From NCBI GenBank assembly GCA_964459095.1, contig CAYWKL010000001.1:21253-85252 (forward strand): a DNA stretch of 64,000 nucleotides, read 5' to 3'. The notes beneath the pieces were generated by a model. That model worked only from the letters and a program-made list of their open reading frames with translations, was not told the DNA's origin and did not search any database. The DNA is from an uncultured Gammaproteobacteria bacterium (GTDB taxonomy: Bacteria; Patescibacteriota; Microgenomatia; Daviesbacterales; UBA10151). The position numbers and the translations under genes were made by a program. This document shows positions 2-61,535 of this stretch, piece by piece; position 1 is the first letter of the stretch; every line of letters begins with the position of its first letter.

Positions 2-832
2 GCCTCAATTGACGAAATAAATGAGGAAGCAAACCCTGATTATGCTGTAGCAAATTTTGCCTGGGCAACAAGAGGATTTTACTGGTGGATGAACAGTTTA
101 CCTGAGGATTTTTTAAGATTTAATTTCCAAAAACCTATTGGTGTGCTTGAGTTTTCTTATCCAGCAATTGCTTTGCGGGAAATTGAACCATACTCTATAT
201 TTCCTGTTTTTAATACCTGGACTGCTCCGGATACAGACTTTATCGTAATTAAGGTTCCTAAGTTTAGGGTTTTAGATAAACAGGAGATTACAAAGTATGA
301 TTTCAGATCAAATACAAATAATTGGACTACGGAAGGATTATACTGGGAAGAAAATACTATTCTCTCATCTGAAGACGAAGGTCTAATAGTGGATAAACAA
401 TCGTCTAGACTGCCTAGTCCCAGATGGCAATCATCACCTGTAGATATTGATGGATGGAGGGGCTTTGAAATAGAATTCACAACAATAACAGAAACGGACT
501 CAGAAAAAATTAAAGGCGGATTTGTTTATGTAAATTTCTATAAAAGCCAAGAAGATGCGAAGCAGTCTAAAAACAGGATAGGGGTAAGAGTGAGTTCCAG
601 GACTAACGTGCCAAATATTTGGCTTAATAAATCATTGATTGGGACAGTGCCAAAAGATGCTAGATATATGACTATTGCTTTTTATGCATATGAAACATCA
701 ACTTCTAAAAGCATTTTACAGACATTAACTTTATATAAAGCGGATGTTGAGGTAGATTTGGGAGGAGTTAAAGTTACACCAATTCATATCGATCAAAATA
801 ATTTATTCCCCAACAGCCATGGGAACTTATAA
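2..832 (+). CDS. Hypothetical protein, 5'-partial. The reading frame is open back to the window edge.
   Basis: The ORF track gives 89..832. The same frame has no stop from nt 2, so the gene probably starts upstream of the window. I recognise no motifs. Confidence 0.45.
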   Translation, partial: ASIDEINEEANPDYAVANFAWATRGFYWWMNSLPEDFLRFNFQKPIGVLEFSYPAIALREIEPYSIFPVFNTWTAPDTDFIVIKVPKFRVLDKQEITKYDFRSNTNNWTTEGLYWEENTILSSEDEGLIVDKQSSRLPSPRWQSSPVDIDGWRGFEIEFTTITETDSEKIKGGFVYVNFYKSQEDAKQSKNRIGVRVSSRTNVPNIWLNKSLIGTVPKDARYMTIAFYAYETSTSKSILQTLTLYKADVEVDLGGVKVTPIHIDQNNLFPNSHGNL

Positions 833-855: not shown

Positions 856-1860
856 ATGAAAAGATTAGCTCTTATAGGCTATGGGTATTGGGGACCTAAT
901 ATCTTAAGAAATTTATTTGATACTCCAAATACTGAAGTTGTTTATTTAGCTGATTTGTCAAAAGATAGACTTAATTTAGCAAAAAAAAGATACCCTTCAA
1001 TTAAAACAACTGAAAATATTGATTTAATTCTGAATGATCCTTCAATTGACGGAGTAATAATTGCAACACCTACAAAAACTCATTTTTCACTCGGACAAAA
1101 GTTTTTAAATCTAGGAAAAAATATTTTAATAGAAAAACCAATGACCCAAAATTTGGAAGAAGCAATTAACTTAGTTAGGCTTTCCAAAAAAAAGAAAAAA
1201 TTGCTTATGGTAGATCACACGTTTTTATTTAACGATGCAGTTATAAAAATCAAGGATTTAATTGATAAAGGAGAGTTAGGAAATATTTTATATATAGACT
1301 CAGTTAGGGCTAACCTTGGGCTTTTTCAAACAGATGTTAATGTAATCTATGATCTCGCTTCACATGATTTTTCAATAATTCAATATTTTCTTGAATCTAA
1401 ACCCAAATCAATAAAAGCAACAGGCGCATCCCATTACAGCAAACAGGAAGATGTTGCATACATTAGCGCAAAGTACCCAAATAATATAATGGCACATGTT
1501 CATGTAAGTTGGCTTTCTCCTTTAAAAATAAGAAGAATGATGATAATAGGAACAAAAAAAATGATAGTTTATGATGACACCGAAACTGCTGAAAAAATAA
1601 GAGTTTATGATAAAGGGATTATTATGGATTTAAATAGTGCATTAGCTGAGCAAATAAAGATTGGATACAGGTCTGGGGATGCTTGGTTACCGAAAGTAAA
1701 CATAATAGAACCATTAAGTCTAATGCTTGAAGAATTTGTTAGAGGTATAGAAAAGAAAAAGGGAGAAGTTAAAAGTTCCGGGAACTTTGCCTTAAGCGTG
1801 ATGGAAACTCTTGACGGCGCTACTAAATCCGTTAGAACAGGAAGAAAGGTAAATCTATAA
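856..1860 (+). CDS. Gfo/Idh/MocA-family NAD(P)-dependent oxidoreductase (WbpB/GnnA-like sugar-nucleotide 3-dehydrogenase)
   Basis: N-terminal Rossmann motif 'LALIGYGYWGPN'. Has the family's conserved 'EKP' motif ('ILIEKPM'). Lies immediately upstream of an acetyltransferase and an aminotransferase. Confidence 0.75.
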   Translation: MKRLALIGYGYWGPNILRNLFDTPNTEVVYLADLSKDRLNLAKKRYPSIKTTENIDLILNDPSIDGVIIATPTKTHFSLGQKFLNLGKNILIEKPMTQNLEEAINLVRLSKKKKKLLMVDHTFLFNDAVIKIKDLIDKGELGNILYIDSVRANLGLFQTDVNVIYDLASHDFSIIQYFLESKPKSIKATGASHYSKQEDVAYISAKYPNNIMAHVHVSWLSPLKIRRMMIIGTKKMIVYDDTETAEKIRVYDKGIIMDLNSALAEQIKIGYRSGDAWLPKVNIIEPLSLMLEEFVRGIEKKKGEVKSSGNFALSVMETLDGATKSVRTGRKVNL

Positions 1861-2330
1861 TGCCTGTTTCAAAAGATACAAAACTTGGAAAAAATGTAAA
1901 AATTTTCCATAAAGATTTAGTGAATATTTACGGATGCCAGATTGGTGATAATAGCATTATTGGTGCTTTTGTAGAAATTAAACCCACTGCTAAAATTGGA
2001 AAAAATGTAAAAATTCAAGCAGGAGCATTTATCCCTGAAGGTGTAATTATAGAAGACGGAGTTTTTATTGGACCCCATGTTGTTTTTACTAATGATCTTT
2101 ATCCAAGGGCTATTAATGAGGATGGGACTTTAAAGAAATCAAAAGATTGGCAGATAACTCCAACTTTTGTTAAAAAGGGTGCATCAATTGGTGCTAATGC
2201 AACTATACTTTGTGGAATAACAATTGGAGAAAAAGCAATGATTGGAGTAGGAGCTGTTGTGACAAAAAGTATCCCTGATAAAGCAATTGCTATTGGAAAC
2301 CCTGCAAAAATTAAAAGATATCTTAAATAA
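1860..2330 (+). CDS. Left-handed beta-helix (hexapeptide-repeat) N-acetyltransferase, WbpD/WlbB/PglD-like
   Basis: Repeated [LIV]-G-x-x-x-x hexapeptides ('IGDNSIIGAFVEI', 'IGKNVKIQAGAFI', 'IGANATILCGITIGEKAMIGVGAVV'). 156 aa. Its start shares 1 nt with the upstream stop (TAATG). Confidence 0.7.
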   Translation: MPVSKDTKLGKNVKIFHKDLVNIYGCQIGDNSIIGAFVEIKPTAKIGKNVKIQAGAFIPEGVIIEDGVFIGPHVVFTNDLYPRAINEDGTLKKSKDWQITPTFVKKGASIGANATILCGITIGEKAMIGVGAVVTKSIPDKAIAIGNPAKIKRYLK

Positions 2331-2332
2331 AT

Positions 2333-3439
2333 ATGCACATCCCCCTAGTAGACTTGAAATCTCAATACAAGGATATAGAAAGCTCAGTTAATAAAGAGGT
2401 ATTAAAAGTTTTAAGAGAAGGAGATTTCATTTTAGGTAAAAGTGTAGATAAGTTTGAAAAGAAATTTGCTGATTATATTGGGGTTAAATATTGTATTGGG
2501 GTGGCATCTGGGACTGACGCCCTACTTTTATCTCTAAAAGCTCTAGGTGTAGGCAAAGGAGATGAGGTAATTACAGTTCCAAATACTTTTATCGCTACAG
2601 TTTTTCCAATCATTCTCCTTGGGGCAAGGCCAGTTTTTGTGGACATAGATCCTAAAACTTATCAAATTGATACAGAAAAACTAAAGGAGACAGTCACTAA
2701 AAAAACAAAGGTAATTTTACCAGTACATTTATTTGGAATTCCTGCAAACATGAAAGAGATATTAAGTCTTGCAAGAAGTTCCAATATTTCTGTACTCGAG
2801 GATACTGCTCAAGCACATGGAAGTTCTATAGAAAGCAAAAAATGCGGATCATTTGGTGATATTTCTGCCTTTTCATTTTATCCAGGCAAAAATTTAGGCG
2901 CAGCAGGAGATGGCGGAGCTGTTGTCACAAATAGTGCAAGGCTTGCAAATCTAATAAAAAGTATGCGCAATATTGGGCAATCAAAAAAATATAAGCATGA
3001 TATTTTTGGGTTTAATAGCCGCCTTGACTCTCTGCAGGCAGCCGTACTTTTAGTAAAACTAAAACTTCTTGACAAGTGGAATACTAAAAGAAGAAGCCTT
3101 GCAAATAAGTATAAGCAGTTACTTAAAGATTTACCAATTATTTTACCACCGGATCTTCCTACTGGATTTTTAGAAAACTTTCATTTATATATAATCCGAA
3201 CAAAAAAAAGAGAAAAATTAATGGATTATTTAAAATCAAAAAAAGTTTTTTGCGGAATACATTATCCTATTCCAGTACATCTACAAAAATCACTGAAATA
3301 CTTAGGGTTTAAAAAGGGGGATTTCCCTATTACTGAAAAATATGCAAACGAAGTGCTCTCGCTTCCAATTTTTCCACAAATGAGTGAGGAGCAGGTATTT
3401 AGAGTTTCATCACTTATTCACAAATTTTTTAAAAAATGA
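2333..3439 (+). CDS. DegT/DnrJ/EryC1/StrS-family PLP-dependent sugar aminotransferase (WbpE-like)
   Basis: N-terminal 'IPLVDLKSQY'. 'GVASGTDALLLSLKALGVGKGDEVITVPNTFIAT'. Typical length of 368 aa. Confidence 0.85.
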   Translation: MHIPLVDLKSQYKDIESSVNKEVLKVLREGDFILGKSVDKFEKKFADYIGVKYCIGVASGTDALLLSLKALGVGKGDEVITVPNTFIATVFPIILLGARPVFVDIDPKTYQIDTEKLKETVTKKTKVILPVHLFGIPANMKEILSLARSSNISVLEDTAQAHGSSIESKKCGSFGDISAFSFYPGKNLGAAGDGGAVVTNSARLANLIKSMRNIGQSKKYKHDIFGFNSRLDSLQAAVLLVKLKLLDKWNTKRRSLANKYKQLLKDLPIILPPDLPTGFLENFHLYIIRTKKREKLMDYLKSKKVFCGIHYPIPVHLQKSLKYLGFKKGDFPITEKYANEVLSLPIFPQMSEEQVFRVSSLIHKFFKK

Positions 3440-4395
3440 GTAGTTTAAAAATTGTAGTTACAGGTGGGGCAGGTTTAATTGGATCTTGGGTAGTTGATTA
3501 TCTCCTATCAGATAAAGATCTTAAAGTAAAAGAAATTGTTGTTTTAGACAATTTTTTTAGGGGAACAAGAGCTAATTTAAGAGAAGTTTTAAAAAATAAA
3601 AAGGTAAAGGTAGTTAAGGGTGATATCAGAGATATAAGTCTTGTAAATAAAGTAATAAAAAACGCAGATTTTGTAATACATGAAGCAGCAATAAGAATCA
3701 CTCAATGTGCTGAAAATCCAAGAGAGTGTAATGAAGTATTGGTTGACGGGACTTTTAACATTTTAGAAGCTTGTGTTAAACAAAAGGTAAAAAAACTAAT
3801 TTTTAACTCTTCTGCTTCTGTTTATGGAGACCCCTCATATCTTCCAATGGATGAGGATCACCCATACAATAATTTAACAGCCTATGGAGCTGGAAAAATT
3901 GCAAATGAACATATGGCAAAAGCTTTTAGAAAAATGTATGGATTAAATTATATGTGTCTGCGCCCTTTTAATGTATACGGACCAAGAATGGATATTTACG
4001 GCGCATATACAGAAGTTTTAATAAGGTGGCTTGATAGAATAGATGAAGGGCTTCCGCCAGTTATTCATGGCGATGGCAAACAATCAATGGATTTTGTGTA
4101 TGTTGAAGACGTTGCTAAAGCCACAATGTTAGCGTTAAAGTCCAAGATTAATGAAGGTGTTTATAATGTAGGGACTGGAAAAGAAACTGATCTTAGAACT
4201 TTATTAAATTTGCTTTTAAAGGTAAATAAATCAAAGTTAAAACCTATTTTTGAAAAGCAAAGAACTGCAACTCATGTTTCAAGAAGAAGAGCTGATATAA
4301 AAAAAGCAAAAAAGGATTTAGGGTTTGTTGCTAAAACATCTGTTAAGGAGGGTTTAAAAAAGTTAATTGAATGGAAAAAAGAAAGCGTCTTGTAA
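3436..4395 (+). CDS. NAD-dependent epimerase/dehydratase (extended SDR)
   Basis: 'VTGGAGLIGSW' GxxGxxG motif. 'YGAGK' (YxxxK) catalytic motif. 319 aa. Has a 4-nt ATGA overlap with the upstream gene. Confidence 0.8.
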   Translation: MSSLKIVVTGGAGLIGSWVVDYLLSDKDLKVKEIVVLDNFFRGTRANLREVLKNKKVKVVKGDIRDISLVNKVIKNADFVIHEAAIRITQCAENPRECNEVLVDGTFNILEACVKQKVKKLIFNSSASVYGDPSYLPMDEDHPYNNLTAYGAGKIANEHMAKAFRKMYGLNYMCLRPFNVYGPRMDIYGAYTEVLIRWLDRIDEGLPPVIHGDGKQSMDFVYVEDVAKATMLALKSKINEGVYNVGTGKETDLRTLLNLLLKVNKSKLKPIFEKQRTATHVSRRRADIKKAKKDLGFVAKTSVKEGLKKLIEWKKESVL

Positions 4396-4399
4396 AACC

Positions 4400-5524
4400 A
4401 TGAATATCCCCTTAACAAAACCCTACTTCAGCAAAGATGAAGAAGATGCAGTCATTAAGACCCTTAGGTCTGGCTGGGTTACGCAGGGTCCAAAAGTAGA
4501 GGAATTTGAGAATTTGGTAGCAAAATATACAGGAGCTAAGTATGCTAGCGCTGTTTCATCGGCCACAACTGGACTCTTTTTATCCCTTTATGCATTAGGT
4601 GTAGATCCTGGGGATGAGGTAATTGTTCCTTCTTTTACTTTTATTGCCTGTGCAAATGTAATTGTGCACTTAGGAGGACAACCAGTATTTGTTGATATAG
4701 ATTCTGAAACATATAATCTTAGTCCAGCTCTGGTTGAGAAGAAAGTTACTAAAAAAACTAAAGCAATAATTGCTGTAGATCAAATAGGACTTCCTTGTAA
4801 TATAAAAGAAATTTTAAAAATTGCTAGAAGAAATAATATTCATATTGTTGAAGATGCAGCATGTGCCATTGGAAGCAAGGTTAATGGAAAAATGGTGGGC
4901 AGTTTAGGACATTTAACAGTTTTTAGTTTTCATCCAAGAAAATCAATAACAACTGGTGATGGGGGAGTAATAGTAACAAACAATAAATCCTTAGATAAAA
5001 AGCTAAAGATGTTGAGGCAACACGGAATGTCTGTTTCTGACGTTAAAAGGCATAAATCAAACAAAGTAATTAAAGAATCTTACCGGTTTGTTGGTTTTAA
5101 TTTCAGAATGACAGACCTTCAAGCTGCAGTTGGAGTAGAGCAAATGAAAAAGCTTCCTGAAATACTTAAAAAAAGAAGACTTTTAGCAGAACGTTATACT
5201 AATGCATTTAAAAATAAAAAAAATATAATCACTCCTTTTGTTCCCAAGGGTTTTGTTCACAATTATCAATCTTATATGATTAGATTAAATACTAAAAAAG
5301 TAAGTGTTGCTGCTTTGAGGCAAAGACTATTAAATTTAGGAGTTAATACCAGGTTTGGAATTATGGCTTCTCACCTAGAACCTGCATATACAAAAATGAT
5401 GGGGAAAATTTCTTTACCTGAAACAGAAAAAGCAACAAGGCAAACTTTGATTTTACCCCTCTATTATCATATGACAAAAGAGCAACAAGAATTTGTCATT
5501 GATGAGATTTTAAAGGCAACTTAA
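4400..5524 (+). CDS. DegT/DnrJ/EryC1/StrS-family sugar aminotransferase (second copy)
   Basis: 'MNIPLTKPYF…', 'VSSATTGLFLSLYALGVDPGDEVIVPSFTFIACANV'. The longest ORF starts at 4367 and overlaps the upstream gene. The ATG at 4400 fits the family's N-terminus better. Confidence 0.85.
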   Translation: MNIPLTKPYFSKDEEDAVIKTLRSGWVTQGPKVEEFENLVAKYTGAKYASAVSSATTGLFLSLYALGVDPGDEVIVPSFTFIACANVIVHLGGQPVFVDIDSETYNLSPALVEKKVTKKTKAIIAVDQIGLPCNIKEILKIARRNNIHIVEDAACAIGSKVNGKMVGSLGHLTVFSFHPRKSITTGDGGVIVTNNKSLDKKLKMLRQHGMSVSDVKRHKSNKVIKESYRFVGFNFRMTDLQAAVGVEQMKKLPEILKKRRLLAERYTNAFKNKKNIITPFVPKGFVHNYQSYMIRLNTKKVSVAALRQRLLNLGVNTRFGIMASHLEPAYTKMMGKISLPETEKATRQTLILPLYYHMTKEQQEFVIDEILKAT

Positions 5525-5531: not shown

Positions 5532-6653
5532 ATGGAAGATTTTGAGCACGGAATTCCTGACAATCCCTATAATAAGCATGCTTGGATACTGGGCAACCCT
5601 GAGATAGGGGAGGGTGTTTGGATAGGAGCCTTTTGTTTAATTGATGCTCTGCATTCACACTTAAAAATAGGGAAATGGTGTGATATTTCAAGCGGTGCAC
5701 AAATAATCACTCACTCAACTGTAAGAAGGTGCATATCTGAAAGAAAACTAAACTTTATTGATAAAGCACCAGTAGAGATTGGCGATTATTGCTTTATAGG
5801 GACAAATGCGGTAATTTTAATGGGAACAAAAATTGGCCACCACTCTGTTATAGCTGCAGGAGCGCTAGTAGAGGAAGATTCAAATATCCCCCCTTATTCT
5901 TTGGTTGCAGGCGTTCCTGCAAGAGTAATTGGGTCAAGCAGAAAGTACCTCAAAAATCTACCAATGGAGTCAGTGTCAGTTGTTATCCCTGCCTATAACG
6001 AGGAAGAAACAATAGAGGAGGTTGTCAAAGATGCCCTTAAAAATTTATCAATACTTGTAAAAGATTATGCGGTTGTCTTAGTTGATGATGGATCAAAAGA
6101 TAAAACAGGAAAAATTATTGATCAATTATCAAAGAAAAATAAGAAAGTAAGGGCTATTCATCACAAGAAAAATCAAGGATTTACAGGGGCCATAAAAACT
6201 AGTTTAAAATCTGGGACGAAAGATTTAATTTTTTTAGCTCCTGCTGATGGACAATTCAATTTTAAGGAACTAGGTGCTTTTATAAAAGCTATTAATGGAT
6301 ATGATTGTGCGGTTGGATACAGAATTAAAAACGAGGAGACTTTTATAAGAAAATTTAACTCCAAAGGCTTCCATTTGCTATCAAGAATTTTGCTAAATAT
6401 AAATTTAAAAGAGATTTCAACAGTATCAATGTGGAGAAAGACTATGATAGATTCATTAACAATAGATTCTAGCCAAGGGAGTGCAATGCTTCTACCTGAA
6501 ATTATAAGTAAGGCTATAAAAAGGGGGTTTAAATTTACTGAAGTACCTATTCACTGGTACGAGCGAAAAGGTGGGAAATCAAAAGGAGCTAATCCAATAG
6601 TTATAGTTAAAACATTTATAGAAATGCTTCGGTTGTCAATAAAGAATTTATAA
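5532..6653 (+). CDS. Two-domain fusion: an N-terminal hexapeptide acyltransferase (~aa 1-135) joined to a C-terminal GT2 DPM1/ArnC/GtrB-like polyprenyl-phosphate glycosyltransferase
   Basis: N-terminal hexapeptide repeats ('IGEGVWIGAFCLI', 'IGDYCFIGTNAVILMGTKIGHHSVIAAGALV', 'VAGVPARVIG'). Then 'VSVVIPAYNEEETIEEVV…VLVDDGSKDKT…HHKKNQGFTGA' in one uninterrupted ORF. Confidence 0.65.
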   Translation: MEDFEHGIPDNPYNKHAWILGNPEIGEGVWIGAFCLIDALHSHLKIGKWCDISSGAQIITHSTVRRCISERKLNFIDKAPVEIGDYCFIGTNAVILMGTKIGHHSVIAAGALVEEDSNIPPYSLVAGVPARVIGSSRKYLKNLPMESVSVVIPAYNEEETIEEVVKDALKNLSILVKDYAVVLVDDGSKDKTGKIIDQLSKKNKKVRAIHHKKNQGFTGAIKTSLKSGTKDLIFLAPADGQFNFKELGAFIKAINGYDCAVGYRIKNEETFIRKFNSKGFHLLSRILLNINLKEISTVSMWRKTMIDSLTIDSSQGSAMLLPEIISKAIKRGFKFTEVPIHWYERKGGKSKGANPIVIVKTFIEMLRLSIKNL

Positions 6654-6665: not shown

Positions 6666-9401
6666 ATGCTAAGAAAATTTAGCTCAAAAATCTTTAAGTT
6701 CATAAATAATCATTTCTCACTTTTTTTATTGGCTGTAGTGTTTATCTCTTTAGGACAAATGATTTTTATGGATGTGTGGCAGGATGACCAAGCCCTTTTT
6801 TTTAAATTGGCCCACATAAATGAGCCAGCGGGATTCTTTGGGGATGGACCGTTTGGTGCAGGGCCCTATCGATATGCTGCTACCCCATTTATTCCGATTT
6901 ACCACTTCTTTAAATTTAACACTTACGCCTATTTTGCTTTTATGCTCACTTTATACGGTCTTGCAACCATTGCTTTATATAAAACTTTTAAACTTATTTT
7001 AGGAGATACTGCTGGAAAAGTTTCGGGATTCTTATTTGCAGCAGGGTACATAACTTCTGATGGCGCTTACAGAATGGCAAATAGTGTAACTACTAGTTTC
7101 TCAGTTATATTTGTGTCTTTAATTCTCTATTCTTACTGGAAATATTTAAGAAAAAGAGGAACTGTTTGGTATATTCTTGCACTTATCTTTTTCTTTCTAT
7201 CTCAAGAACTGGCTATTACAAGGATGCATTATTTTTTTGCAGTAATAATTATATTTGAGATTATTTTTTTTATCTGGGGGAGTTCAATCAAAAAAATATC
7301 CTTTGTAATTTTAAGATTAATCCCATTTTTTATAGTTTTTTATCATTACATGATTTCTGGTGGAGATCCACGAGTTGGAGAGTCTTCAAGTTATTTTTTT
7401 GCATTTCTAAACAATAAATTCTATTTATATTATGGATTTTTTGCATCCCTAGCTAATTTAATAATTCCTGACTGGCTACTTAAACCTATTTTCAATTTTT
7501 TATCTCAAGGCTCTAATTTAGGACTTTCAAATATTTCAAGATTAACACTTATTTTCTTGGTGCTTTTTTCTGCAACTGCTATTTTTTTTATTTTTAAAAA
7601 GAGTTTGAAGATTAAGATAACTTCATTTATCTTAATTATAAGTTGGCTCCTTTGGGCTAAAAACATTTTTAACACTCCTTTTTTAAGTCTTTCACCTTCT
7701 GATTTTTTTTCAGCTTATATAGGCGGAATAATATTAATAATTTATAGCTTAGGTATTTTTTACTTTGAGAGGTTTAAAAAAATTCTCATTTTTCTAGGAT
7801 TTTGGCTTGTGGGAAATATCATTGCATACTCAGCTTACTTCCCAACAGTTGCGTATGAAACAACTAACAGATATTTAACACATTCATTTCTGCCATTAGT
7901 AGCTATATACGGATTAATATTTAGCATTTGCATAAAAAAGAAGGGTTTTACTAAATATATAGCTTATTTAATTATGGTGATTGCCTTTCTTAATATTTTC
8001 GCTTCAATTCAATATCAGCAAAATATCCTAATTAGCAGAAGCTTTAAAACCAAGAGTTTTTATAGCCAGCTAAAAACTTTGCTCCCTGAAATAAAAAAGG
8101 GTGACATTATATTCTTTGATCTTGCTGATTCAAACCAAGGGATATATAAAGATGCTATCTCTGCCGCGATGATGCCCGATACTACCTCGTTTGCATGGAG
8201 ATATGGGATTGATAGGTATGATTTTAAGTTAACAAATGATTTCAATGAGTTATTAAAAATATTCTCTGATGAGAAAAAAAATCCCCAGCAAGTCCACTCT
8301 TTTTGGTTTTCAGGTAAAGACTTAGTTTCAACTTCCAAAGATGTAAGAAAATACTTACAGGGATCTCTAAATGTAGAAAAAGATATTGATCTTAACTTAA
8401 CATCAAATGCTCAATTAGAAAATAAAAACGACTCAACTTTATATAGTCAAGAAGATATTAAAATTGATTTTGAAGACCCAATTAAAAATTTGGTTCCATT
8501 AACTTTAAGTTTAATTATAAAAGCTAATCCTTTAGACTTAAGAGATCTGAAATTTCCACTAATAAACACTGCTTTAAATGAACCAACAAAAGTAAAATAT
8601 AGTTTGCTAGGTGTTAATGAAATTCTACATTTTTTTGAGTATCAAAAATTCAAGAATTCCTTCTATCAAAATTTAAAGTTAAAAACTTCAAGTAACTGGC
8701 AGGATAGAGTTTTAGAGAACTTGATGGATCAGGACTCATCTAGTGTTTGGCAATCTGATAGAGTTCTATGGAGGGATAACAGAGCTCTTGTAGAAATAGA
8801 ACTTCCGACCGAAAGTACGCTTAGTAAATTAGTTTGGGTAAATGGTTTTCCTAACAACACACCTATTTCCTATTCAATTGAAAGTTCCCTAGATGGAAAA
8901 AATTGGACTCAGGTATTAATAGTAAATAAAAATGAAAAAATAATTGACACAAGACCTCAAATAGTTAGTTTTAAACCTACAAAGGTAAAGCATATTCGTA
9001 TGGTTATAACAGCTACAATTGGAGGGGACTCCCCTAGCCTGTCAGAAATTTGGGTAGTTCCTTCAAGATTTAACGATTTGGAAATAGAAGAAGCTGAAAA
9101 TTATTTAACAAATCCCTTTCTGTATATCAGCGAAAAGAGCCATTTCTTCAACTTACTTAACTTAACCTCAAATACAGGCAAGACATCGCTTTATTGGAAA
9201 AATGATAAAAGTGAAGCTTTTCAAACAAGTAAAGATACACAAATTAATATAATCTATGATGGAATACCAAGAGTATACGAAACCCCTATTCCCGCAGGAG
9301 GATTAAACCTTTCAAGTATCATGTTATCGAATTTTACTATCCCCGGAGATATATCAATATTAAATATCAGCTCTTCAGTAAAGCCATTGAAAAAATTATG
9401 A
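6666..9401 (+). CDS. Large polytopic membrane protein (GT-C-like?) with a C-terminal F5/8-type-C (discoidin)-like carbohydrate-binding domain
   Basis: About 450 aa of hydrophobic helices with 'DVWQDDQ' near the N-terminus. The C-terminal domain 'SSSVWQSD…LVEIELPTESTLSKLVWVNGF…YSIESSLDGKNWTQ' matches the discoidin pattern. Confidence 0.55.
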   Translation: MLRKFSSKIFKFINNHFSLFLLAVVFISLGQMIFMDVWQDDQALFFKLAHINEPAGFFGDGPFGAGPYRYAATPFIPIYHFFKFNTYAYFAFMLTLYGLATIALYKTFKLILGDTAGKVSGFLFAAGYITSDGAYRMANSVTTSFSVIFVSLILYSYWKYLRKRGTVWYILALIFFFLSQELAITRMHYFFAVIIIFEIIFFIWGSSIKKISFVILRLIPFFIVFYHYMISGGDPRVGESSSYFFAFLNNKFYLYYGFFASLANLIIPDWLLKPIFNFLSQGSNLGLSNISRLTLIFLVLFSATAIFFIFKKSLKIKITSFILIISWLLWAKNIFNTPFLSLSPSDFFSAYIGGIILIIYSLGIFYFERFKKILIFLGFWLVGNIIAYSAYFPTVAYETTNRYLTHSFLPLVAIYGLIFSICIKKKGFTKYIAYLIMVIAFLNIFASIQYQQNILISRSFKTKSFYSQLKTLLPEIKKGDIIFFDLADSNQGIYKDAISAAMMPDTTSFAWRYGIDRYDFKLTNDFNELLKIFSDEKKNPQQVHSFWFSGKDLVSTSKDVRKYLQGSLNVEKDIDLNLTSNAQLENKNDSTLYSQEDIKIDFEDPIKNLVPLTLSLIIKANPLDLRDLKFPLINTALNEPTKVKYSLLGVNEILHFFEYQKFKNSFYQNLKLKTSSNWQDRVLENLMDQDSSSVWQSDRVLWRDNRALVEIELPTESTLSKLVWVNGFPNNTPISYSIESSLDGKNWTQVLIVNKNEKIIDTRPQIVSFKPTKVKHIRMVITATIGGDSPSLSEIWVVPSRFNDLEIEEAENYLTNPFLYISEKSHFFNLLNLTSNTGKTSLYWKNDKSEAFQTSKDTQINIIYDGIPRVYETPIPAGGLNLSSIMLSNFTIPGDISILNISSSVKPLKKL

Positions 9402-9935
9402 TTTCAATTGTTTAAGCAAGTCTTTAACACTGTCAATATTTATTTGGATATCTTTTTGTTGTGCACTTGGAACACTTATTTTAATTGAGTTAAGAACAAT
9501 AAGTTGTTTATCTAGGGACTCAATAATTTTTATCTTAAGTAAATCTGCTGTTTCATTATCTTCTCTGGATAGTTCTTCATATAAAGAAACAGCATTTTTT
9601 CTTCTGTTTTGAGCATTGCTCATGGTTTTCAATGCGTTACTATAACCTTTATTATTGTATAAATATTCACCTTCTATCAATCTCTTTTCAGATAAAGTTA
9701 AACTATATTCTGCTTTATTCGTTTTGCCAAACGTTATTAACTCTCTAATTGACTCTTTAAATTGTTTTAGTGGATAAAGCGGATCACCTAGCACCTTACC
9801 AGGAGTTATAGGAAAAAAGAGTTCATATGAGCTAGGAGGTGTTGCAGTTTTTTCTGCTTGGGCTTCCACCCTACCTACAATAAATATACCTGTAAACAAA
9901 AGGAGCGAAACAATGAATAAGTTAAGAATCTTCAT
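9396..9935 (-). CDS. Secreted hypothetical protein (signal peptide + coiled/low-complexity region)
   Basis: 'MKILNLFIVSLLLFTGIFIVGRVEAQAEK' looks like a signal peptide. No catalytic motifs. Confidence 0.5.
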   Translation of the reverse strand: MKILNLFIVSLLLFTGIFIVGRVEAQAEKTATPPSSYELFFPITPGKVLGDPLYPLKQFKESIRELITFGKTNKAEYSLTLSEKRLIEGEYLYNNKGYSNALKTMSNAQNRRKNAVSLYEELSREDNETADLLKIKIIESLDKQLIVLNSIKISVPSAQQKDIQINIDSVKDLLKQLKS

Positions 9936-10716
9936 CTTTAACTACAATATAGGAGATGTACATAGATGGTGTCAATAACCAATAAAAATAACTATCAAGT
10001 TTTTTTACAATCTTTAAACTCTCTCTGAGAAGTCTTTTATTTATAAGTCCTATCAATATTTCTGCAGGTAGAAATAATGTCCACACAGGGAGTCCTCTTG
10101 TAGTCAAAAGTTTAAACCCTTGCGTCCTTAGCAACTTAACTATATCCTTTTTGTAAAAACTTGTTGATTCAATTTCGGCAAAACTACTTCCTCTTAGTAA
10201 TGGTATTAAGCCTCCTAAATTTATAATGTTATACCCAATACTGTTTCTTTCTATTAATATTACTTTTCCATTCTTTTTTAGAATTTCTTTAATTTTTTTT
10301 ATAACTTTTATTTGCTCATTGAGGACTGTGATATACATCAGAGTTGTCACAATAATTATTACATCAAAACTTAGCGGTTTAAATTTAATTTCTTTTATAT
10401 CTCCAACATAAGCTTTAGCTCTTGGATTTAAAGAATTGTTGTAAATGTCAACGTAAGTTTTAGCAATGTCGATGCCGATTATATTTGCTTTTGGAAAATC
10501 TTTCAAAATTCTTTTTGATATTCTTCCAAATCCGCAGCCGAGATCTAAAATCTTTACTTTCTTTTCCTCATCAATTGCATTTTTAATAACCTCATACATC
10601 CATTCATCTAAATAGTCATTTACATACCTGGGTAAGGATTTGGGTAATACACCCTCAATTTTATCTTTATATTTTTTACTTCTTTCTTCCCAAGCACTAG
10701 TAATTTTGGCTTTCAT
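9922..10716 (-). CDS. Class I SAM-dependent methyltransferase
   Basis: Motif I 'ILDLGCGFGRISKRIL'. Also 'NIIGIDIAKTYVD' and 'VIIIVTTLMYI'. Confidence 0.7.
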   Translation of the reverse strand: MKAKITSAWEERSKKYKDKIEGVLPKSLPRYVNDYLDEWMYEVIKNAIDEEKKVKILDLGCGFGRISKRILKDFPKANIIGIDIAKTYVDIYNNSLNPRAKAYVGDIKEIKFKPLSFDVIIIVTTLMYITVLNEQIKVIKKIKEILKKNGKVILIERNSIGYNIINLGGLIPLLRGSSFAEIESTSFYKKDIVKLLRTQGFKLLTTRGLPVWTLFLPAEILIGLINKRLLRESLKIVKKLDSYFYWLLTPSMYISYIVVKDEDS

Positions 10717-11627
10717 TTTTTCAATTTTAGAGAAACTAAAACAAGAAATACACTCATCTCTGCTATTGTTAGTAAAAAACGAAATGCCAATGCGATTCCT
10801 GATGCTAGGCTAAGTGGAATCTGCGCATAGATACTTAAAAAATAAGCTAGGGAAACCTCAGTTACTCCAAGGCCTCCAGGAGCAATAATTGTTAGGTATC
10901 CAATTAACCAAGAGAAAGCATAAATTCCTGAAATAGTGAGAAGATTTAAATCTAGTTTATGAAGAAAGGCATATTGAATAAGGATAAGTCCGAGTCCATT
11001 GAGAACAAAGTTAAATACAAAAAAAGGGGAAGGGAGTAAAAGATTCCTATTATTTGGCAAGTTACCTCTTTCACCCACATCCTTTTTTGCAAGTTTCAGA
11101 AGTGTATTTAGAATTTTCCTACTTATGAATGGCATTAGTGTTAAGCTGCCTGCTATAAGAAAGAAAAACATAATAAACTTTACTTGGGATGAAGGTATAA
11201 TAAATTCAAGAGCGAATAAAGAAACAAAACAAGCAGCAAGAACAGATAAAAAAATCTCCTGAACTAAAGAAATGAGAGTTTTTTCCCTAGATATACTAAG
11301 CTCGCTTTTAGCAAGTTCTATCCTTCCTAAATATTGCCATACAGTTCCTGGTATGTACCTTGATGTAAGAGAAATTATCCATACACGTAAAGCTACAATT
11401 AGCTTAATTTTCCTGTCTCTTATTAGTAAATACCAACAGAAAGCAGCTTCTGGATAAACAAAAAGTAAAACTATAAATGAAACTGCTAAAATAGCGATGT
11501 CAAGATTTTGTAAATATCTTTCAAATTGAGCCCAATTTAACAACACATTCCTTAGAAGAAAGGAGAGTAAAAGAATAGGAATTAATACTTTAAAGATTGC
11601 CTTAAGTTTGCTTAAATCATTAAACAT
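10713..11627 (-). CDS. Flippase-like integral membrane protein (lysyl-phosphatidylglycerol-synthase TM-region family, UPF0104-like)
   Basis: Eight-helix hydrophobic profile. 'IAPGGLGVTEVSLAYFLS' (P-G-G-x-G-x-x-E) and 'RYIPGTVWQYLGR'. Confidence 0.55.
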   Translation of the reverse strand: MFNDLSKLKAIFKVLIPILLLSFLLRNVLLNWAQFERYLQNLDIAILAVSFIVLLFVYPEAAFCWYLLIRDRKIKLIVALRVWIISLTSRYIPGTVWQYLGRIELAKSELSISREKTLISLVQEIFLSVLAACFVSLFALEFIIPSSQVKFIMFFFLIAGSLTLMPFISRKILNTLLKLAKKDVGERGNLPNNRNLLLPSPFFVFNFVLNGLGLILIQYAFLHKLDLNLLTISGIYAFSWLIGYLTIIAPGGLGVTEVSLAYFLSIYAQIPLSLASGIALAFRFLLTIAEMSVFLVLVSLKLKK

Positions 11628-13945: not shown

Positions 13946-15967
13946 CTAATTAATTACCTCCCAAATTTGCGAAATTGAATTTTCATATATTTTCACAATT
14001 TTATAATCTCCTGGAGAAAGTTTTAATCTATTTTCAAAACCTTGATTTTTACTTAAAATTATGTACTTTGCACCTAATTTATAAAGATATTCTCCTGCTT
14101 TTTTGTGATCAGTAATTCCAAAAAGCTTATTATTGTAGAGCAACTTTTTCCCAGATAGTACCCCAACATAGTCTCTTATATTTCCATAAGAAGGATTAGT
14201 ACTATCAAATGTGGCACAAACTAGACATTTTGAATCCTCAACAACTGTAACTCCTTTTTTCTTCACTTTTAAATGTAAAAGAGCGTCATATTCAGACTGA
14301 CTAATTATATATTTATGACTGAGTTTGTTTAAAACTAAGTATGTCACATAAGCACCGCTAATAACTGCAACTGTAAGTATTAACAAATAAAAAATACTAA
14401 GATGCTTTTTTGAAATAAGATAAATAGTAAAAAGAAATAATAAAACACTGGCTATTATAATAATTGGAGTTATAAGTTTGATTTTAGGTCTTATTAAGAA
14501 ATAGATTGTAGCGACAGATAGATTCCGAAGTTTAACTCCTTCTTTATCAACTGGGAAATTCTTATTAATCTGTATAGTAATGTCATCTCCAATCTTTACT
14601 TTAATATAGGGATGATTTAGAAGTTTTGATAAATCTTTTTGAGAAAAATTTTCGAAAACTATACTTTCCTTTTTTAAAATAATTTTTTTATTGTCAGATA
14701 AAGTTATTATTACACCAGCTCCGCTGTAAGATAAGTTAAAGGAATTTATATTATCAAATTTAACTACTGAACTAGGGTCATTTATCTTGTCAACAACAGA
14801 GGGTATGTTAATTAACAAATTGTCCTCTGTAACTTTATCTTTATAGAAAGGCTCCTGAAAGTTTTCTTGATATATCCTAAAATCAACTAATTCTATACTT
14901 TTGGTCTCTGGGTTAAATATAATTCCCATTCTATATTCAGGAGTTTGATACCAATAGCTCCGTACCTTGGTATTTAGAAGATCACTTCCTCCTATTAAAC
15001 TTGAGGGTGTTTCTTTAAATTTGGCTTTAAACCATTTTCCGAATTCTTCCATAGTTAGAAATTCCATTCCAGTCTTATTTGCCAAACCAACAAGTGTATC
15101 AAGCTGTGTCGAGTATGATTTAGAATAAACATCTTCTGGTAAATCCGCTTCTAGCCCAAATACAGCTTGACCAAAGAGGTTAGAGTTTTTTAAGGCATAA
15201 AGTTTAAATAGGTTTTTTAAATAGTCATTATTAAACCCCAAAGTTAAATAATCTTGACTGCTGTATTTACTTACAATTGAATCTCCATAAGCATTTAAAG
15301 GGTCCCTTGGAGCCCACTGAATTGTAACTACACCTAGCTTATTTTTCTCTGTGGCAGGAATTCCTGCATGAAACTTGCTCGGATAAAATGGATATGACCA
15401 ATATTGCCCCCAGATAGAGTAATTATCTGTTGAATACTGATCTGCCACAGAAAGGTTGGTAATTATTCCGTACTTTTTAAACATATACTCTAGCGAGAAA
15501 CTGTCTATCCACCAAGCCCCTACAGATTTTGGATAGAATCCAAATCTGCCTTTAAACTGCGCAAATAGTATATTTATCAATTTAATCCTCTCTTTTTGCT
15601 TATAACCTACTAAAAATAAAGACCGTGCTCTGTGCCAAGAATCAGAAGAATGATAATCTACACCAGCCCTTTTTGCTAAATCAGGTGTAACTTCAACAAA
15701 AATTCCTATTTCCTGTTTTTTGTCAAAATCTTTAATGAACTCAATAATTTTAGAATCTTCTAATACGTCGTAAGTTACAAGCCAAGTAGAGGGTAATCTT
15801 CTTTTTATTATTTCCTTATACTCTGCTTTAATACTTTCAAATGGAGTCTTGTTATAATTTGAAATCCTTACAGGATGGATAAGATTTATGTACTCTTGAT
15901 TTGCAAACACATTTTTTGGGAATAAAGAAAAAAAAATTACAAAAAAAAATAGGATAGTTGTTTTCAT
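13946..15967 (-). CDS. Secreted, C-terminally membrane-anchored protein carrying a conserved extracytoplasmic domain of unknown function (paralog of the N-terminal half of 44560..47982)
   Basis: Signal peptide. 'FVEVTP…SVGAWWIDSFSLEYM…DQYSTDNYSIWGQYWSYPFYP…VVTIQWAPRDP' aligns by eye with 'FLEVTP…SVGAWFIDSFSLNYM…DQYSTDNYQIWGQYFGYPYYP…VVITQWAPRDP' in the 1140-aa protein. Late TM segment 'IIIIASVLLFLFTIYLI'. Confidence 0.5.
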   Translation of the reverse strand: MKTTILFFFVIFFSLFPKNVFANQEYINLIHPVRISNYNKTPFESIKAEYKEIIKRRLPSTWLVTYDVLEDSKIIEFIKDFDKKQEIGIFVEVTPDLAKRAGVDYHSSDSWHRARSLFLVGYKQKERIKLINILFAQFKGRFGFYPKSVGAWWIDSFSLEYMFKKYGIITNLSVADQYSTDNYSIWGQYWSYPFYPSKFHAGIPATEKNKLGVVTIQWAPRDPLNAYGDSIVSKYSSQDYLTLGFNNDYLKNLFKLYALKNSNLFGQAVFGLEADLPEDVYSKSYSTQLDTLVGLANKTGMEFLTMEEFGKWFKAKFKETPSSLIGGSDLLNTKVRSYWYQTPEYRMGIIFNPETKSIELVDFRIYQENFQEPFYKDKVTEDNLLINIPSVVDKINDPSSVVKFDNINSFNLSYSGAGVIITLSDNKKIILKKESIVFENFSQKDLSKLLNHPYIKVKIGDDITIQINKNFPVDKEGVKLRNLSVATIYFLIRPKIKLITPIIIIASVLLFLFTIYLISKKHLSIFYLLILTVAVISGAYVTYLVLNKLSHKYIISQSEYDALLHLKVKKKGVTVVEDSKCLVCATFDSTNPSYGNIRDYVGVLSGKKLLYNNKLFGITDHKKAGEYLYKLGAKYIILSKNQGFENRLKLSPGDYKIVKIYENSISQIWEVIN

Positions 15968-16710
15968 CTTTTTATATGTTTCCTAGTGTAGAAATTAGTT
16001 TTTAATCTAAAATATACTCCTAAAGTATCCAAAAACATCCGAAAAATTGTTTTCCAAGAAATCCTACTGGTTTTTTTATCAAATTTAACTTCTAAAGGCG
16101 CTTCAAATATTCTCTTAAATCCCAAAGCTCTTGCAACTGCTAAAAGCTCTATATCCATTGCATATTTTTTCACAAACATTCTTGGTAGGACCTTTTTTAT
16201 CACATTTCTTTTAAATATTTTTATTCCACTTTGAGTATCAGTTAAAGGAAGTCCAAATAACGCCTTAACAAATATATGATAACCAATGCTTAAAGTTCTT
16301 CTTAGGAGTGGATAATTTACCCTTGAAACAGGATGCCTTTTTGAACCAATAATTATATCTGCATTATACCAAGTCATATGCGACATCAACATCATAATAC
16401 TAGCCGGGGAAATTTCTCTTCCTGCATCTATAAATGAAACGAGCTCTCCCCTACTTCTCATAATCCCATACCTTACCGCAAATCCCTTACCCCTATTTTG
16501 AGGGTAGTCAAAAATTCTAATCCTCTTTGATTTTAAATTTTTTACTTTTCTTTTAGTCTCTTCAGGATCACCATCGATCACACAAATAATTTCAAAATTA
16601 AAATTTTTTAGCCCTTCTAGTAAAACTTTTTCTATAGTTTGTAAATCTTTTCTTAAAGTTCTTGCCTGTTTGTAAGCGGGTACGATAACTGATAGTAATT
16701 TCTTTCTCAT
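15964..16710 (-). CDS. GT2-family glycosyltransferase
   Basis: 'LSVIVPAYKQARTL', 'ICVIDGDPEETK'. 248 aa. Confidence 0.8.
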   Translation of the reverse strand: MRKKLLSVIVPAYKQARTLRKDLQTIEKVLLEGLKNFNFEIICVIDGDPEETKRKVKNLKSKRIRIFDYPQNRGKGFAVRYGIMRSRGELVSFIDAGREISPASIMMLMSHMTWYNADIIIGSKRHPVSRVNYPLLRRTLSIGYHIFVKALFGLPLTDTQSGIKIFKRNVIKKVLPRMFVKKYAMDIELLAVARALGFKRIFEAPLEVKFDKKTSRISWKTIFRMFLDTLGVYFRLKTNFYTRKHIKR

Positions 16711-19151: not shown

Positions 19152-20169
19152 ACTTATAAACCTCAATTGTTTCTTCTGTGCATCTGCTCCATGAGAATCT
19201 CTTAATATTCTCAAACCCCTTTTGTACGAGCTTCTTTGCAAGTCTTGGATCGCCTAAAAGTTTTCTTATCCCCTCTTCAATTGAGGAGGGATTGTATGGA
19301 TTAACATAAATTACACCTTCTCCTCCTACCTCTTTCATAGCTGATATTGGGCTTGTAATAACTGGAGTTCCGCAAGCTTGTGATTCAACAATAGGTAACC
19401 CAAACCCTTCATAAAATGATGCAAGAATAGTTATCTTTGCAAGATTAATTGTGCAGACCAAATCTTCAGTCGGCATAAATCCTTTAAGGTGTATTAATGG
19501 ACTTTCTTTAAACCTATCAAGAAACTTCTTATAAGAAGATAACTCTTTGTGTTCTGAAATTGTAGTAGTGAAACTGTTTCCTATCATTACTAAGTTAACG
19601 TTTGCCGACTCCGCGGCTTCTGCAATCCCATAAAGATTTTTATTCCAATTTATATCCCCATAATAAACAATGAATTCTGAAGGAAGGTTATATTTTTTTG
19701 AAACATTATCTAATTTATTTTGGCCCTCTATTTTAGTGAATTCTCTAGAAGGGGCAAGGTATATCGGAAATACCTTTTCTTCCTTTACTGACAATTTTTT
19801 TTCAATATCTTTTTTTGAGGAATAAGAATCTGTGATTATGCAGCTAACTTGTCTTAAAGATAGTTTCTGTCTTAAGAGATTAATGCCTCCTTTTATACCT
19901 TTGGGATAATGCTCTGGGAAGAGTAATGGAATCACATCATGTATTGTCACAACAATAGGGAAGTTTTTAAAAAGAGGCAGAGTGTGATTGAAAAAATCAA
20001 AGGTTGGGTAATGAACAAGATCAACTCTTCCTAGAGCAGACAAGTCCTCAAATTCAATTACTGAAATTTTTTTCTTTCTCAAATTTAGAATGAGATTTCT
20101 TGTATAGTTACCTATTCCTCTTTTATCATGACCCTCTTTTAAATTTCTAATACTTATACCAACTTTCAT
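19135..20169 (-). CDS. GT4-family glycosyltransferase
   Basis: 'EGFGLPIVESQACGTPVITS' E-x7-E motif. Confidence 0.85.
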   Translation of the reverse strand: MKVGISIRNLKEGHDKRGIGNYTRNLILNLRKKKISVIEFEDLSALGRVDLVHYPTFDFFNHTLPLFKNFPIVVTIHDVIPLLFPEHYPKGIKGGINLLRQKLSLRQVSCIITDSYSSKKDIEKKLSVKEEKVFPIYLAPSREFTKIEGQNKLDNVSKKYNLPSEFIVYYGDINWNKNLYGIAEAAESANVNLVMIGNSFTTTISEHKELSSYKKFLDRFKESPLIHLKGFMPTEDLVCTINLAKITILASFYEGFGLPIVESQACGTPVITSPISAMKEVGGEGVIYVNPYNPSSIEEGIRKLLGDPRLAKKLVQKGFENIKRFSWSRCTEETIEVYKYALGD

Positions 20170-60204: not shown

Positions 60205-60227
60205 GTTTACTATGCTAACATCAAATT

Positions 60228-61466: not shown

Positions 61467-61500
61467 TAATTGCACGATGTCGCGCATATTGATTATAGTA

Positions 61501-61528: not shown

Positions 61529-61535
61529 TCTGATT

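Follow-up and report, generated by a model that had tools for sequence, protein, structure and literature searches.

Several bifunctional sugar-nucleotide enzymes are known in which an acyltransferase is paired with a partner from its pathway. GlmU combines an LbH acetyltransferase with a nucleotidyltransferase domain and catalyzes two consecutive steps, and in ArnA an N-acyl (formyl) transferase is joined to another pathway enzyme. A second kind of relative is found among the three-component systems GtrB/GtrA/Gtr, CsbB/GtcA/YfhO, DPMS/DPM1-PMT and PpgS-Rv3779, where a GT2 on the cytoplasmic side supplies a polyprenyl-P-monosaccharide to a GT-C enzyme acting outside the membrane; in none of these GtrB-, CsbB-, DPMS- or PpgS-type systems is an acetyltransferase fused to the lipid-loading GT2. 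In this study we describe a gene that joins the two activities. It lies in a 64-kb stretch of DNA from an uncultured Microgenomates bacterium, which was analyzed as a whole and is called the window here, and it codes for an LbH (hexapeptide) acetyltransferase domain followed by a GT2 domain of the polyprenyl-phosphate glycosyltransferase type (Table 1). The fusion resembles GlmU and ArnA in pairing an acyltransferase with a pathway partner. It differs from both in that the partner is a lipid-phosphate glycosyltransferase and not a uridylyltransferase or an SDR, and from GlmU also in the reversed order of the domains. We consider it probable that the protein is peripherally associated with the membrane and bifunctional, catalyzing the two final cytoplasmic reactions in a pathway for lipid-linked amino sugars. 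If this holds, it would be, as far as we could find, the first polyprenyl-phosphate glycosyltransferase with a built-in donor-tailoring acetyltransferase. The components and the logic are already known; the wiring alone is new, and no concept is overturned.

Table 1. Features of the fusion gene and its neighbors (positions in the window)
Feature	Position	Strand	Details
GFO/IDH/MocA oxidoreductase, nucleotide-sugar 3-dehydrogenase-like (WbpB/WlbA role)	856..1860	+	Pfam GFO_IDH_MocA and C-terminal domains
LbH#1, stand-alone hexapeptide acetyltransferase, 3-amino-sugar N-acetyltransferase class	1860..2330	+	Pfam Hexapep
DegT#1, C3-aminotransferase class	2333..3439	+	Pfam DegT 1.4e-119
Extended SDR, WbpP/GalE-type, 4-epimerase-like, possibly 4-oxidase	3436..4395	+	Pfam Epimerase
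DegT#2, ArnB/perosamine-synthase-like C4-aminotransferase	4400..5524	+	Pfam DegT 1.6e-115
LbH (hexapeptide) acetyltransferase domain	5532..5942	+	Fusion residues 1-137; invariant T60-H61-x-T63, R66, W30, D38
Conserved inter-domain linker	5943..5966	+	Residues 138-145; in frame, conserved in 34 homologues
GT-A fold GT2, polyprenyl-phosphate glycosyltransferase type	5967..6653	+	Fusion residues 146-373 plus stop
911-aa membrane protein, candidate acceptor-side transferase	6666..9401	+	GT-C fold

The first-pass annotation had described one uninterrupted ORF of 373 aa, and indeed the reading frame at 5532..6653 (+) runs from ATG to TAA without internal stop. In HMM domain calls the Pfam models Hexapep/Hexapep_2 cover approximately residues 40-135, and Glycos_transf_2 begins at residue 149 (E = 1.8e-25). 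A check for a frameshift or stop near the domain junction at nt 5930-5960 had been advised. This region codes for 'GSSRKYLKNL' in frame and is kept as 'GSSKKFLKG' in an alignment of 34 homologues; in the predicted structure the linker region (residues 137-144) has a pLDDT below 50. A search for the same fusion in related genomes had been suggested too, and more than 110 homologues (53-87% identity) with the same Hexapep and GT2 architecture were found. Clustered at 90% identity, full-length proteins of about 375 aa form at least 113 clusters, which are 54-87% identical to the query, cover 95-100% of it and carry precomputed Hexapep and Glycos_transf_2 matches. They come from many samples and assemblies, and a protein identical to the fusion is also coded on a contig of a separate Logan assembly (run SRR12113430). 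Because of these homologue clusters, the conserved in-frame junction and the second assembly, a fusion made by sequencing or assembly is excluded, and the chance that any artefact of sequencing, assembly or gene calling underlies it is negligible. Hence the LbH-GT2 fusion gene is real and conserved in uncultured Microgenomates bacteria. By phmmer, both halves were found in one ORF only in Microgenomates loci. In a profile search of 1.84 billion representatives, one full-length fusion representative was among the best 150 matches, and the matches listed from scans of genome and metagenome contigs were almost only distant relatives with the GT2 or the LbH half alone. Candidates for independent fusions (L012 from Myxococcota, L098, L100, L101, L131 and L144) appeared as tblastn spans that phmmer did not confirm. 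A literature search on LbH-GT2 fusions or GT-C islands of CPR bacteria found nothing relevant.

The claim of a hexapeptide acyltransferase domain in the N-terminal half (Pfam Hexapep 5.5e-12) was borne out as well, and the predicted structure shows beta-helix strands over fusion residues 18-135. Sequence and fold searches agree in placing this half closest to a sugar N-acetyltransferase, Pcryo_0619 (8vr6/8vr7; 41% identity over 126 aa), with a phmmer E of 3.3e-21 (79 bits) to 8vr6 and a Foldseek E of 5e-11 to 8vr7, the title of which in Foldseek is 'Pcryo_0619 N-acetyltransferase from Psychrobacter cryohalolentis K5'. Both have the TH-x-T-x-x-R motif and a short LbH fold of the same kind. They differ in that Pcryo_0619 is a stand-alone protein of 182 aa with a longer N-terminus, coded in the O-antigen locus of a Gram-negative bacterium. 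We take its substrate to be the UDP-4-amino precursor of 2,3,4-triacetamido-2,3,4-trideoxy-L-arabinose; our literature search on this enzyme (8VR6, 8VR7) found no paper. W30, D38, T60-H61, T63 and R66 are common to the LbH half and Pcryo_0619 and are invariant across the 34 homologues, down to 53% identity. H61, which lines up with the His in the 'THDTVR' of 8vr6, is presumably the catalytic base. From the nearest solved homologue and the gene context we infer that the domain N-acetylates a nucleotide-linked amino sugar in a trimeric active site. It might be possible instead that the domain is catalytically dead and serves the GT2 as a trimerisation or scaffolding module; in one locus (L007) the same operon has an orthologous GT2 without the LbH domain, so the GT2 can work alone. 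However, the invariance of exactly those residues that are shared with Pcryo_0619 argues for retained activity, and we regard a dead domain as very unlikely.

For the C-terminal half a GT2 of the DPM1/ArnC/GtrB type had been proposed, and in both sequence and fold its closest matches are ArnC, PfDPMS and GtrB. These three give the best PDB sequence matches and, in Foldseek, E-values of 5e-14 (ArnC), 4e-12 (DPMS) and 6e-11 (GtrB). Ranks 1-11 are polyprenyl-P transferases aligned over 226-249 columns, and every match of the GT2 half down to rank 33 belongs to this class as well; the AF2 model has a pLDDT of 86. The best NCBIfam matches (ArnC, PgfS, dolichyl-P hexose transferase, AglJ and PpgS) are likewise all polyprenyl-phosphate transferases, with every equivalog score far under its cut-off. 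An assignment as ArnC orthologue was rejected, with 73.4 bits to the ArnC equivalog NF007986 against a cut-off of 529. The domain carries the motifs PAYNEE, DDGSxDxT, APADGQ, KEISTVSxWR and RxGGxSKG. Invariant in the 34 homologues are P153, N156, E157, D186, G187, S188 and D190 (PxYNE, DDGSxD) as well as R345, G348 and K351 (RxxGxSK), the latter aligning with 'EREFGESK' of ArnC. Two features depart from the canonical pattern. At the DxD site, which reads A236-P237-A-D239-G240-Q, an invariant Pro stands for the first Asp, but neither the second Asp nor the Gln has changed; this PAD variant is specific to the clade, DAD or DMD being present in the paralogues of the window. In addition, 'EIST-VS' is found where 'D..CGFK' is usual. 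Judged by these sequence changes, the chemistry of the GT2 may differ from that of ArnC and DPMS.

ArnC and GtrB have two TM anchors and PfDPMS has four, whereas no TM helix (no hydrophobic segment) was detected in the fusion, which ends 21 residues past the SKG motif. A TM anchor is not universal in this class: the model for PpgS spans 226 positions, and window paralogues of 246-249 aa have either no TM helix or a single weak segment within the GT-A core. Helices 271-288 and 355-372 of the fusion are amphipathic, with hydrophobic moments of 0.41-0.49. The lack of a TM helix, the non-canonical DxD site, the altered acceptor-loop motif and the low equivalog scores would also suit an ordinary soluble or peripheral GT2 that extends a lipid-linked oligosaccharide or uses another acceptor. 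Yet not a single other class appears among the Foldseek matches of the GT2 half to rank 33, and conservation extends to the RxxGxSK motif and to the amphipathic helices at the C-terminus. The closest GT2 relatives, moreover, are fused to domains with 9-11 TM helices (one with a PMT_2 match) or to a GtrA domain; among them are two members of the PAD-motif clade, P0164 and P0168, with GT-C-like domains of about 10 TM helices. Short paralogues of the same PP-GT2 type without TM helices also adjoin GT-C genes throughout the window. Taken together, we think an ordinary GT2 quite unlikely, and the GT2 half would move a monosaccharide from a nucleotide sugar onto polyprenyl phosphate.

The operon upstream had been described as an SDR and a DegT aminotransferase. 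Both are present, and they are preceded by a GFO/MocA oxidoreductase, a second hexapeptide acetyltransferase and a second DegT (856-3439), which that description had missed. The best NCBIfam match of the oxidoreductase is the archaeal UDP-GlcNAc 3-dehydrogenase (1.4e-48, under its cut-off). LbH#1 is closest in the PDB to WxcM-like 4mzu (1e-30), the N-acetyltransferase 7s43, 3mqg (labelled 'lipopolysaccharides biosynthesis acetyltransferase') and QdtC 3fs8, all of which we take to be 3-N-acetyltransferases acting on 3-amino sugars. DegT#1 matches 7b0d (4e-119), QdtB (1e-105) and WbpE (3e-80). For DegT#2 the start is most likely ATG 4400 rather than TTG 4367, where the mechanical ORF begins. In the PDB it is closest to ArnB 1mdo (1.1e-66), perosamine synthase and 8vr3/8vr5, and in NCBIfam PseC (1.6e-101) scores higher than ArnB (1.7e-86; 290 bits against a cut-off of 631), both under cut-off; by these scores it appears ArnB-like and is not an ArnB orthologue. 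The SDR is closest to 6dnt (2e-50), WbpP, WbgU and Pal, with UXS and ArnA far lower; 6dnt, 1sb8 and 3ru9 are the WbpP-type epimerases among these matches. Signature motifs of epimerases, decarboxylases and dehydratases have been tabulated, the decarboxylase motif being 'SAE' with a Glu (PMC12820599). With 'NSSASVYG' and 'YGAGK' the SDR has no such Glu. An assignment as ArnA-type oxidative decarboxylase was rejected on the 'SSASVYG' motif, the epimerase best matches and an E of only 8e-16 to the ArnA model. Structures 8vr3/8vr5 (DegT) and 8vr2 (SDR) match DegT#2 and the SDR of the window; their PDB codes adjoin 8vr6/8vr7/8vrm, and from the neighboring codes we assume that all of them stem from one Psychrobacter set.

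The gene order GFO, LbH, DegT, SDR, DegT, fusion is found in all six fusion loci counted (contigs coding the fusion proteins), with a discoidin-domain membrane protein 0-6 kb downstream in each. What lies between the 4-aminotransferase and the GT2 differs from relative to relative: an LbH, either fused or separate, a methyltransferase, or no domain at all. In a split form (L171) an ArnB-like DegT is followed by a stand-alone LbH and then by a GT2 that overlaps the LbH by 4 nt, and in L006 the order is DegT, methyltransferase, GT2. This variation fits an amine-capping step ahead of lipid loading. The LbH half could also be an O-acetyltransferase, or could acetylate the lipid-linked sugar or another position, while the GT2 would still load polyprenyl phosphate. 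Its weaker matches include the O-acetyltransferases WcaF, Mat, LacA, Vat and WbbJ, the operon already has an N-acetyltransferase in LbH#1, and in L002 a formyltransferase directly precedes the fusion, behind DegT#2. The latter matches Fmt (1e-41) and ArnA (8e-37) in the PDB and leans to the ArnA-type stand-alone formyltransferase in NCBIfam. It could already cap the 4-amine, and in that genome the LbH domain would then lack an obvious target for N-acetylation. On the other hand, among solved structures an N-acetyltransferase scores best by a wide margin (79 bits for Pcryo_0619, 50 bits for the next LbH and at most 36 bits for O-acetyltransferases), and the matches of LbH#1 are taken to be 3-N-acetyltransferases, so the 4-amine would otherwise be uncapped. 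Also against this alternative, stand-alone orthologues adjoin ArnB-like DegT genes, and it is a methyltransferase that takes the place of the domain in variants. Sequence alone does not decide between N- and O-acetylation; weighing these points we regard the O-acetyl or other-position alternative as unlikely and prefer N-acetylation of the 4-amine.

Contrary to the first-pass annotation, the fusion is not the end of the operon: after a gap of 12 nt downstream comes a gene for a 911-aa protein, read in the same direction. Residues 1-472 of this protein form a GT-C-fold TM domain of about 14 helices, whose first outer loop bears an acidic motif, the invariant D40-D41 after TM1. The outer part is rich in beta structure, with a CBM32/F5_F8_type_C lectin domain around residues 671-800. 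The protein matches no Pfam GT-C family, and in this point and in the lectin domain it differs from the GT-C partners of the three-component systems.

The locus had also been said to mirror the Arn pathway. The ArnB-like DegT upstream (1mdo, 1e-66), the ArnC-like GT2 and the GT-C fold directly downstream agree with this, and the steps in common would be C4 amination, N-acylation, loading of polyprenyl phosphate and hand-over to a GT-C enzyme. What does not correspond is the WbpP/GalE-type SDR, epimerase-like where Arn has a decarboxylase, the extra C3 branch, and a GT2 that has no TM helices, carries PAD for DAD and is no orthologue of ArnC. The acyl group, too, is a formyl in Arn, transferred by a domain fused to the SDR, whereas here it is probably an acetyl, and the LbH domain that would transfer it is joined to the GT2. 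No equivalents of ArnD, ArnE and ArnF were seen: among the scanned window ORFs there was no match to a deacetylase (ArnD-like) family, no ORF of 70-200 aa with at least three TM segments (ArnE/F-like flippase) was present in the window, and neither a flippase nor a deacylase was found next to the fusion gene. Two flippases of the Wzx type are coded at distances of 10 kb and 41 kb from it. A Pfam match to UDP-sugar 6-dehydrogenase was likewise absent from the scanned window ORFs of the size expected for such an enzyme, about 420-440 aa. The Arn-like logic, in which the amine is capped before lipid loading and transfer by a GT-C, thus seems supported in outline. Microgenomates (CPR) are, to our knowledge, not known to make lipid A; lipid A therefore seems an unlikely acceptor.

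A possible course of the pathway can be proposed. The upstream enzymes would convert UDP-HexNAc to a 3-acetamido-4-amino sugar nucleotide, with the GFO 3-dehydrogenase, DegT#1 and LbH#1 as the C3 branch and the SDR and ArnB-like DegT#2 as the C4 branch. The LbH domain, which presumably forms a trimer as other LbH enzymes do, would N-acetylate the new 4-amino group with acetyl-CoA and the invariant His61. At the inner membrane face the GT-A domain would take the acetylated sugar off UDP and load it onto polyprenyl (undecaprenyl) phosphate. The lipid-linked sugar would then be flipped across the membrane and placed on a cell-surface acceptor by the adjacent GT-C/CBM32 protein. By coupling amine capping to lipid loading, the fusion would commit the acetylated sugar alone and would pull the unfavourable transamination forward, a logic shared with ArnA formylation ahead of ArnC; thereby it probably ensures that only acetylated amino sugar reaches the neighboring surface-decorating membrane transferase. 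We infer all of the substrates, the reaction order, the trimeric state and the pairing with this GT-C. The sugar is more likely of the 3,4-diacetamido type than an Ara4N analogue, because the operon has a complete branch for C3 amination and acetylation. The SDR resembles UDP-GlcNAc 4-epimerase, a type not known to release a 4-keto sugar, and with regard to the supply of substrate for DegT#2 this counts against the proposed course.

A more speculative version, which we hold to be rather doubtful with all its parts taken jointly, is an Arn-like system of Microgenomates for modifying the cell surface, built on a trimeric, channelling LbH-GT2. A UDP-2,3-diacetamido-4-amino sugar might then be capped and at once committed to undecaprenyl phosphate. 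The product, equally tentative, might be a lipid-linked 2,3,4-triacetamido sugar, a type so far known only from the Psychrobacter O-antigen, and it is conceivable to the same limited degree that a previously unclassified GT-C/CBM32 family installs this sugar on a surface glycan or protein. No firmer is the idea that the PAD/EIST active site is an adaptation to a bulky, tri-N-acetylated donor.

The surface chemistry of CPR bacteria is, as far as we know, largely uncharacterised. With the six-gene sugar module, the fusion and its GT-C/CBM32 partner, the locus offers an expressible handle on CPR envelope glycosylation, and, if the inferred functions hold, it provides a natural test of the idea, derived from the ArnA-ArnC example, that N-acylation acts as the gate through which amino sugars enter lipid-linked pathways. 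The genomes of these uncultured CPR bacteria give remarkable space to GT-C enzymes: about 20 of them are coded in the 64-kb window, and many pairs of GT2 and GT-C genes are found there.

The LbH acetyltransferase domain and the GT2 domain are genuinely fused. As the first-pass annotation had claimed, both lie in one uninterrupted ORF running from ATG to TAA, in a window of 31% G+C. Of the 373 aa encoded, the initial third matches Pfam hexapeptide repeats, and Glycos_transf_2 begins at residue 149. The frameshift or stop that might have joined two genes artificially at the domain junction is not there: the linker GSSRKYLKNL (nt about 5930-5960) is in frame and kept among 34 aligned relatives, and one contig of a separate Logan assembly encodes an identical fusion protein. 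Searching 5.8 billion protein clusters, we found at least 113 full-length relatives (~375 aa, 54-87% identity to the query), all with precomputed Hexapep and Glycos_transf_2 matches; where the source is named, it is Microgenomates or Woesebacteria, and the annotation is just 'glycosyltransferase'. Only one full-length fusion representative was among the best 150 matches of a profile search against 1.84 billion representative proteins, the other top matches being stand-alone GT2s, stand-alone LbHs, GT2-GT2 tandems, one GtrA-GT2 protein and many GT2-TM-domain fusions. The fusion family appears to be one tight group, limited to Microgenomates. No published account of a polyprenyl-phosphate GT2 with a fused acetyltransferase was found.

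Nearest in sequence to the LbH half are PDB 8vr6/8vr7/8vrm (E = 3e-21), titled in the fold search as the Pcryo_0619 N-acetyltransferase of Psychrobacter cryohalolentis K5 (41% identity over 126 residues); far lower scores go to Mat-, LacA-, WcaF- and Vat-type O-acetyltransferases. Both proteins have the T-H-x-T-x-x-R loop, W30 and D38, which do not vary across the fusion family. The GT2 half is of the ArnC/DPM1/GtrB type, as had been proposed: ArnC, PfDPMS and GtrB are its top PDB sequence matches, and in the AlphaFold model of the fusion (pLDDT 86) ArnC (E = 5e-14), DPMS (4e-12) and GtrB (6e-11) come ahead of other glycosyltransferases. Its best NCBIfam matches (ArnC, PgfS, dolichyl-phosphate hexose transferase, AglJ, PpgS) are all under their equivalog cut-offs. 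The PAYNEE, DDGSxDxT and RxGGxSKG motifs are invariant in the 34-sequence alignment. APADGQ at residues 236-241 (window 6237-6254) replaces the DAD..Q metal motif, an invariant Pro standing for the first Asp of DxD, and KEIST-VSxWR occupies residues 293-303 (window 6408-6440), where 'D..CGFK' is usual. Both variants are present in the closest stand-alone GT2 relatives and absent from the window's own paralogues, of which 59500-60240 is the best match (34% identity); judged by sequence, they form a clade-specific variant of the predicted active site. No transmembrane helix was found in the fusion protein, and its C-terminus is an amphipathic helix.

Five tightly packed genes precede the fusion on the same strand (see table). 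The order GFO, LbH, DegT, SDR, DegT, fusion recurs in all six fusion loci obtained (the window, L002, L004, L168, L169, L170), with the SDR relocated in L004. In L169 (6818-8878) a single 686-aa protein unites the C3-type DegT with the SDR, a second fusion event of the same pathway. The SDR lends no support to the first-pass analogy with ArnA: its signatures 'SSASVYG' and 'YGAGK' (motifs tabulated in PMC12820599) are typical of WbpP/GalE epimerases, and UDP-GlcNAc 4-epimerases (6dnt, WbpP, WbgU) match it best, with UXS and ArnA distant. Several related loci hold a PMT_2 gene at the position of window ORF 89-832.

Features of the window and their closest families
Feature	Position	Strand	Remarks
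247-aa ORF	89-832	+	directly upstream of the sugar operon; no Pfam or NCBIfam family match
GFO/MocA oxidoreductase		+	resembles UDP-GlcNAc 3-dehydrogenases
LbH acetyltransferase, 156 aa	1860-2330	+	best solved relatives 4mzu, 7s43, 3mqg and QdtC, which we take to be 3-amino-sugar N-acetyltransferases
First DegT	2333-3439	+	closest to C3 aminotransferases QdtB, WbpE
Extended SDR	3436-4395	+	WbpP/GalE-epimerase signature
Second DegT	4400-5524	+	closest to C4 aminotransferases ArnB, perosamine synthase
LbH-GT2 fusion	5532-6653	+	373 aa
304-aa protein	10713-11627	-	7 TM segments; no Pfam or NCBIfam family match
Three paralogous membrane proteins	42579-47982, 13946-15967	-	662, 1140, 673 aa; up to 14 TM segments; no Pfam or NCBIfam match
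Four short DPM1-like GT2s	15964-16710, 29467-30216, 57260-58006, 59500-60240	-	246-249 aa; each adjoins a GT-C-like membrane protein; TM anchor not evident
Two Wzx-type flippases	16750-18003, 47975-49453
PIG-V-like protein	17991-19241
PMT_2/ArnT-like GT-C proteins (examples)	21028-22647, 24158-25807, 30213-31850, 55747-57276, 60228-61373
Three YfhO-like paralogues	50742-55750
301-aa protein	61470-62375	+	no family match in Pfam
Fifth DPM1-like paralogue	62386-63567	-	joined to GtrA/DPMS TM domain
GDP-mannose 4,6-dehydratase-like SDR, C-terminal part	63591-64000	-	frame open to the window end; gene truncated only because the window stops there

Close relatives differ in what separates the GT2 from the C4 aminotransferase. 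In L007 the operon is the same, but its orthologous GT2 (56% identity) has no LbH domain, and L006 runs DegT, methyltransferase, GT2. The short contig L171 (3-1552) shows the split order: an ArnB-like DegT (57% identical to that of the window), a stand-alone LbH (P0178, 166 aa) and a PgfS/ArnC-type GT2 whose gene overlaps that of the LbH by 4 nt; on the high-GC contig L089 a stand-alone LbH (62% identical) adjoins a DegT. This variation fits amine capping by the LbH domain ahead of lipid loading. A complication for this reading is L002, where a 317-aa formyltransferase (9046-9999) stands between the ArnB-like DegT and the fusion, besides the fused LbH. In NCBIfam it matches PRK06988 (245 bits) and ArnA (1e-56), and Fmt under its cut-off; it is of ArnA type and makes the Arn resemblance stronger.

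Close relatives of the GT2 half (P0164, P0168, P0171, P0195, P0205, P0236, P0238, P0243, P0244, P0283) carry C-terminal domains of 9-11 TM helices, with a PMT_2 match in P0238 and the PAD/EIST variant also in P0164 and P0168. Such joining to TM-helix domains or GtrA speaks for the GT2 supplying a GT-C enzyme, and the TM-helix fusions would put both lipid-linked glycosylation steps in one polypeptide.

The analysis establishes the domain identities, the gene order, the split and fused forms and the fold of the neighbour; substrates, order of reactions, oligomeric state and partner are inferences. It seems somewhat probable that the fusion is a bifunctional enzyme: the LbH domain would N-acetylate the 4-amino group of a UDP-linked 3-acetamido-4-amino sugar, the GT-A domain would next move the acetylated sugar onto polyprenyl phosphate and, after flipping, the GT-C/CBM32 protein directly downstream might pass it to a surface acceptor. 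Such a system would operate in the manner of the Arn pathway and of the GtrB or CsbB three-component systems. The likeness to Arn drawn in the first-pass annotation would hold for this overall logic; however, the pathway is without ArnA-type decarboxylation and, as far as the ORFs scanned show, ArnD-type deacylation, and the GT2 is no ArnC orthologue (73 bits vs a cut-off of 529).

Taken together, the genes of the window make up a single glycosylation island, mostly on the minus strand between 12800 and 63600, with at least 12 paralogous PMT_2/ArnT-like GT-C proteins, three GT4 and several GT2 proteins. A 1179-aa protein of L002 that looks related to the three paralogous membrane proteins gives weak GT-C_AftD and DUF5667 matches.
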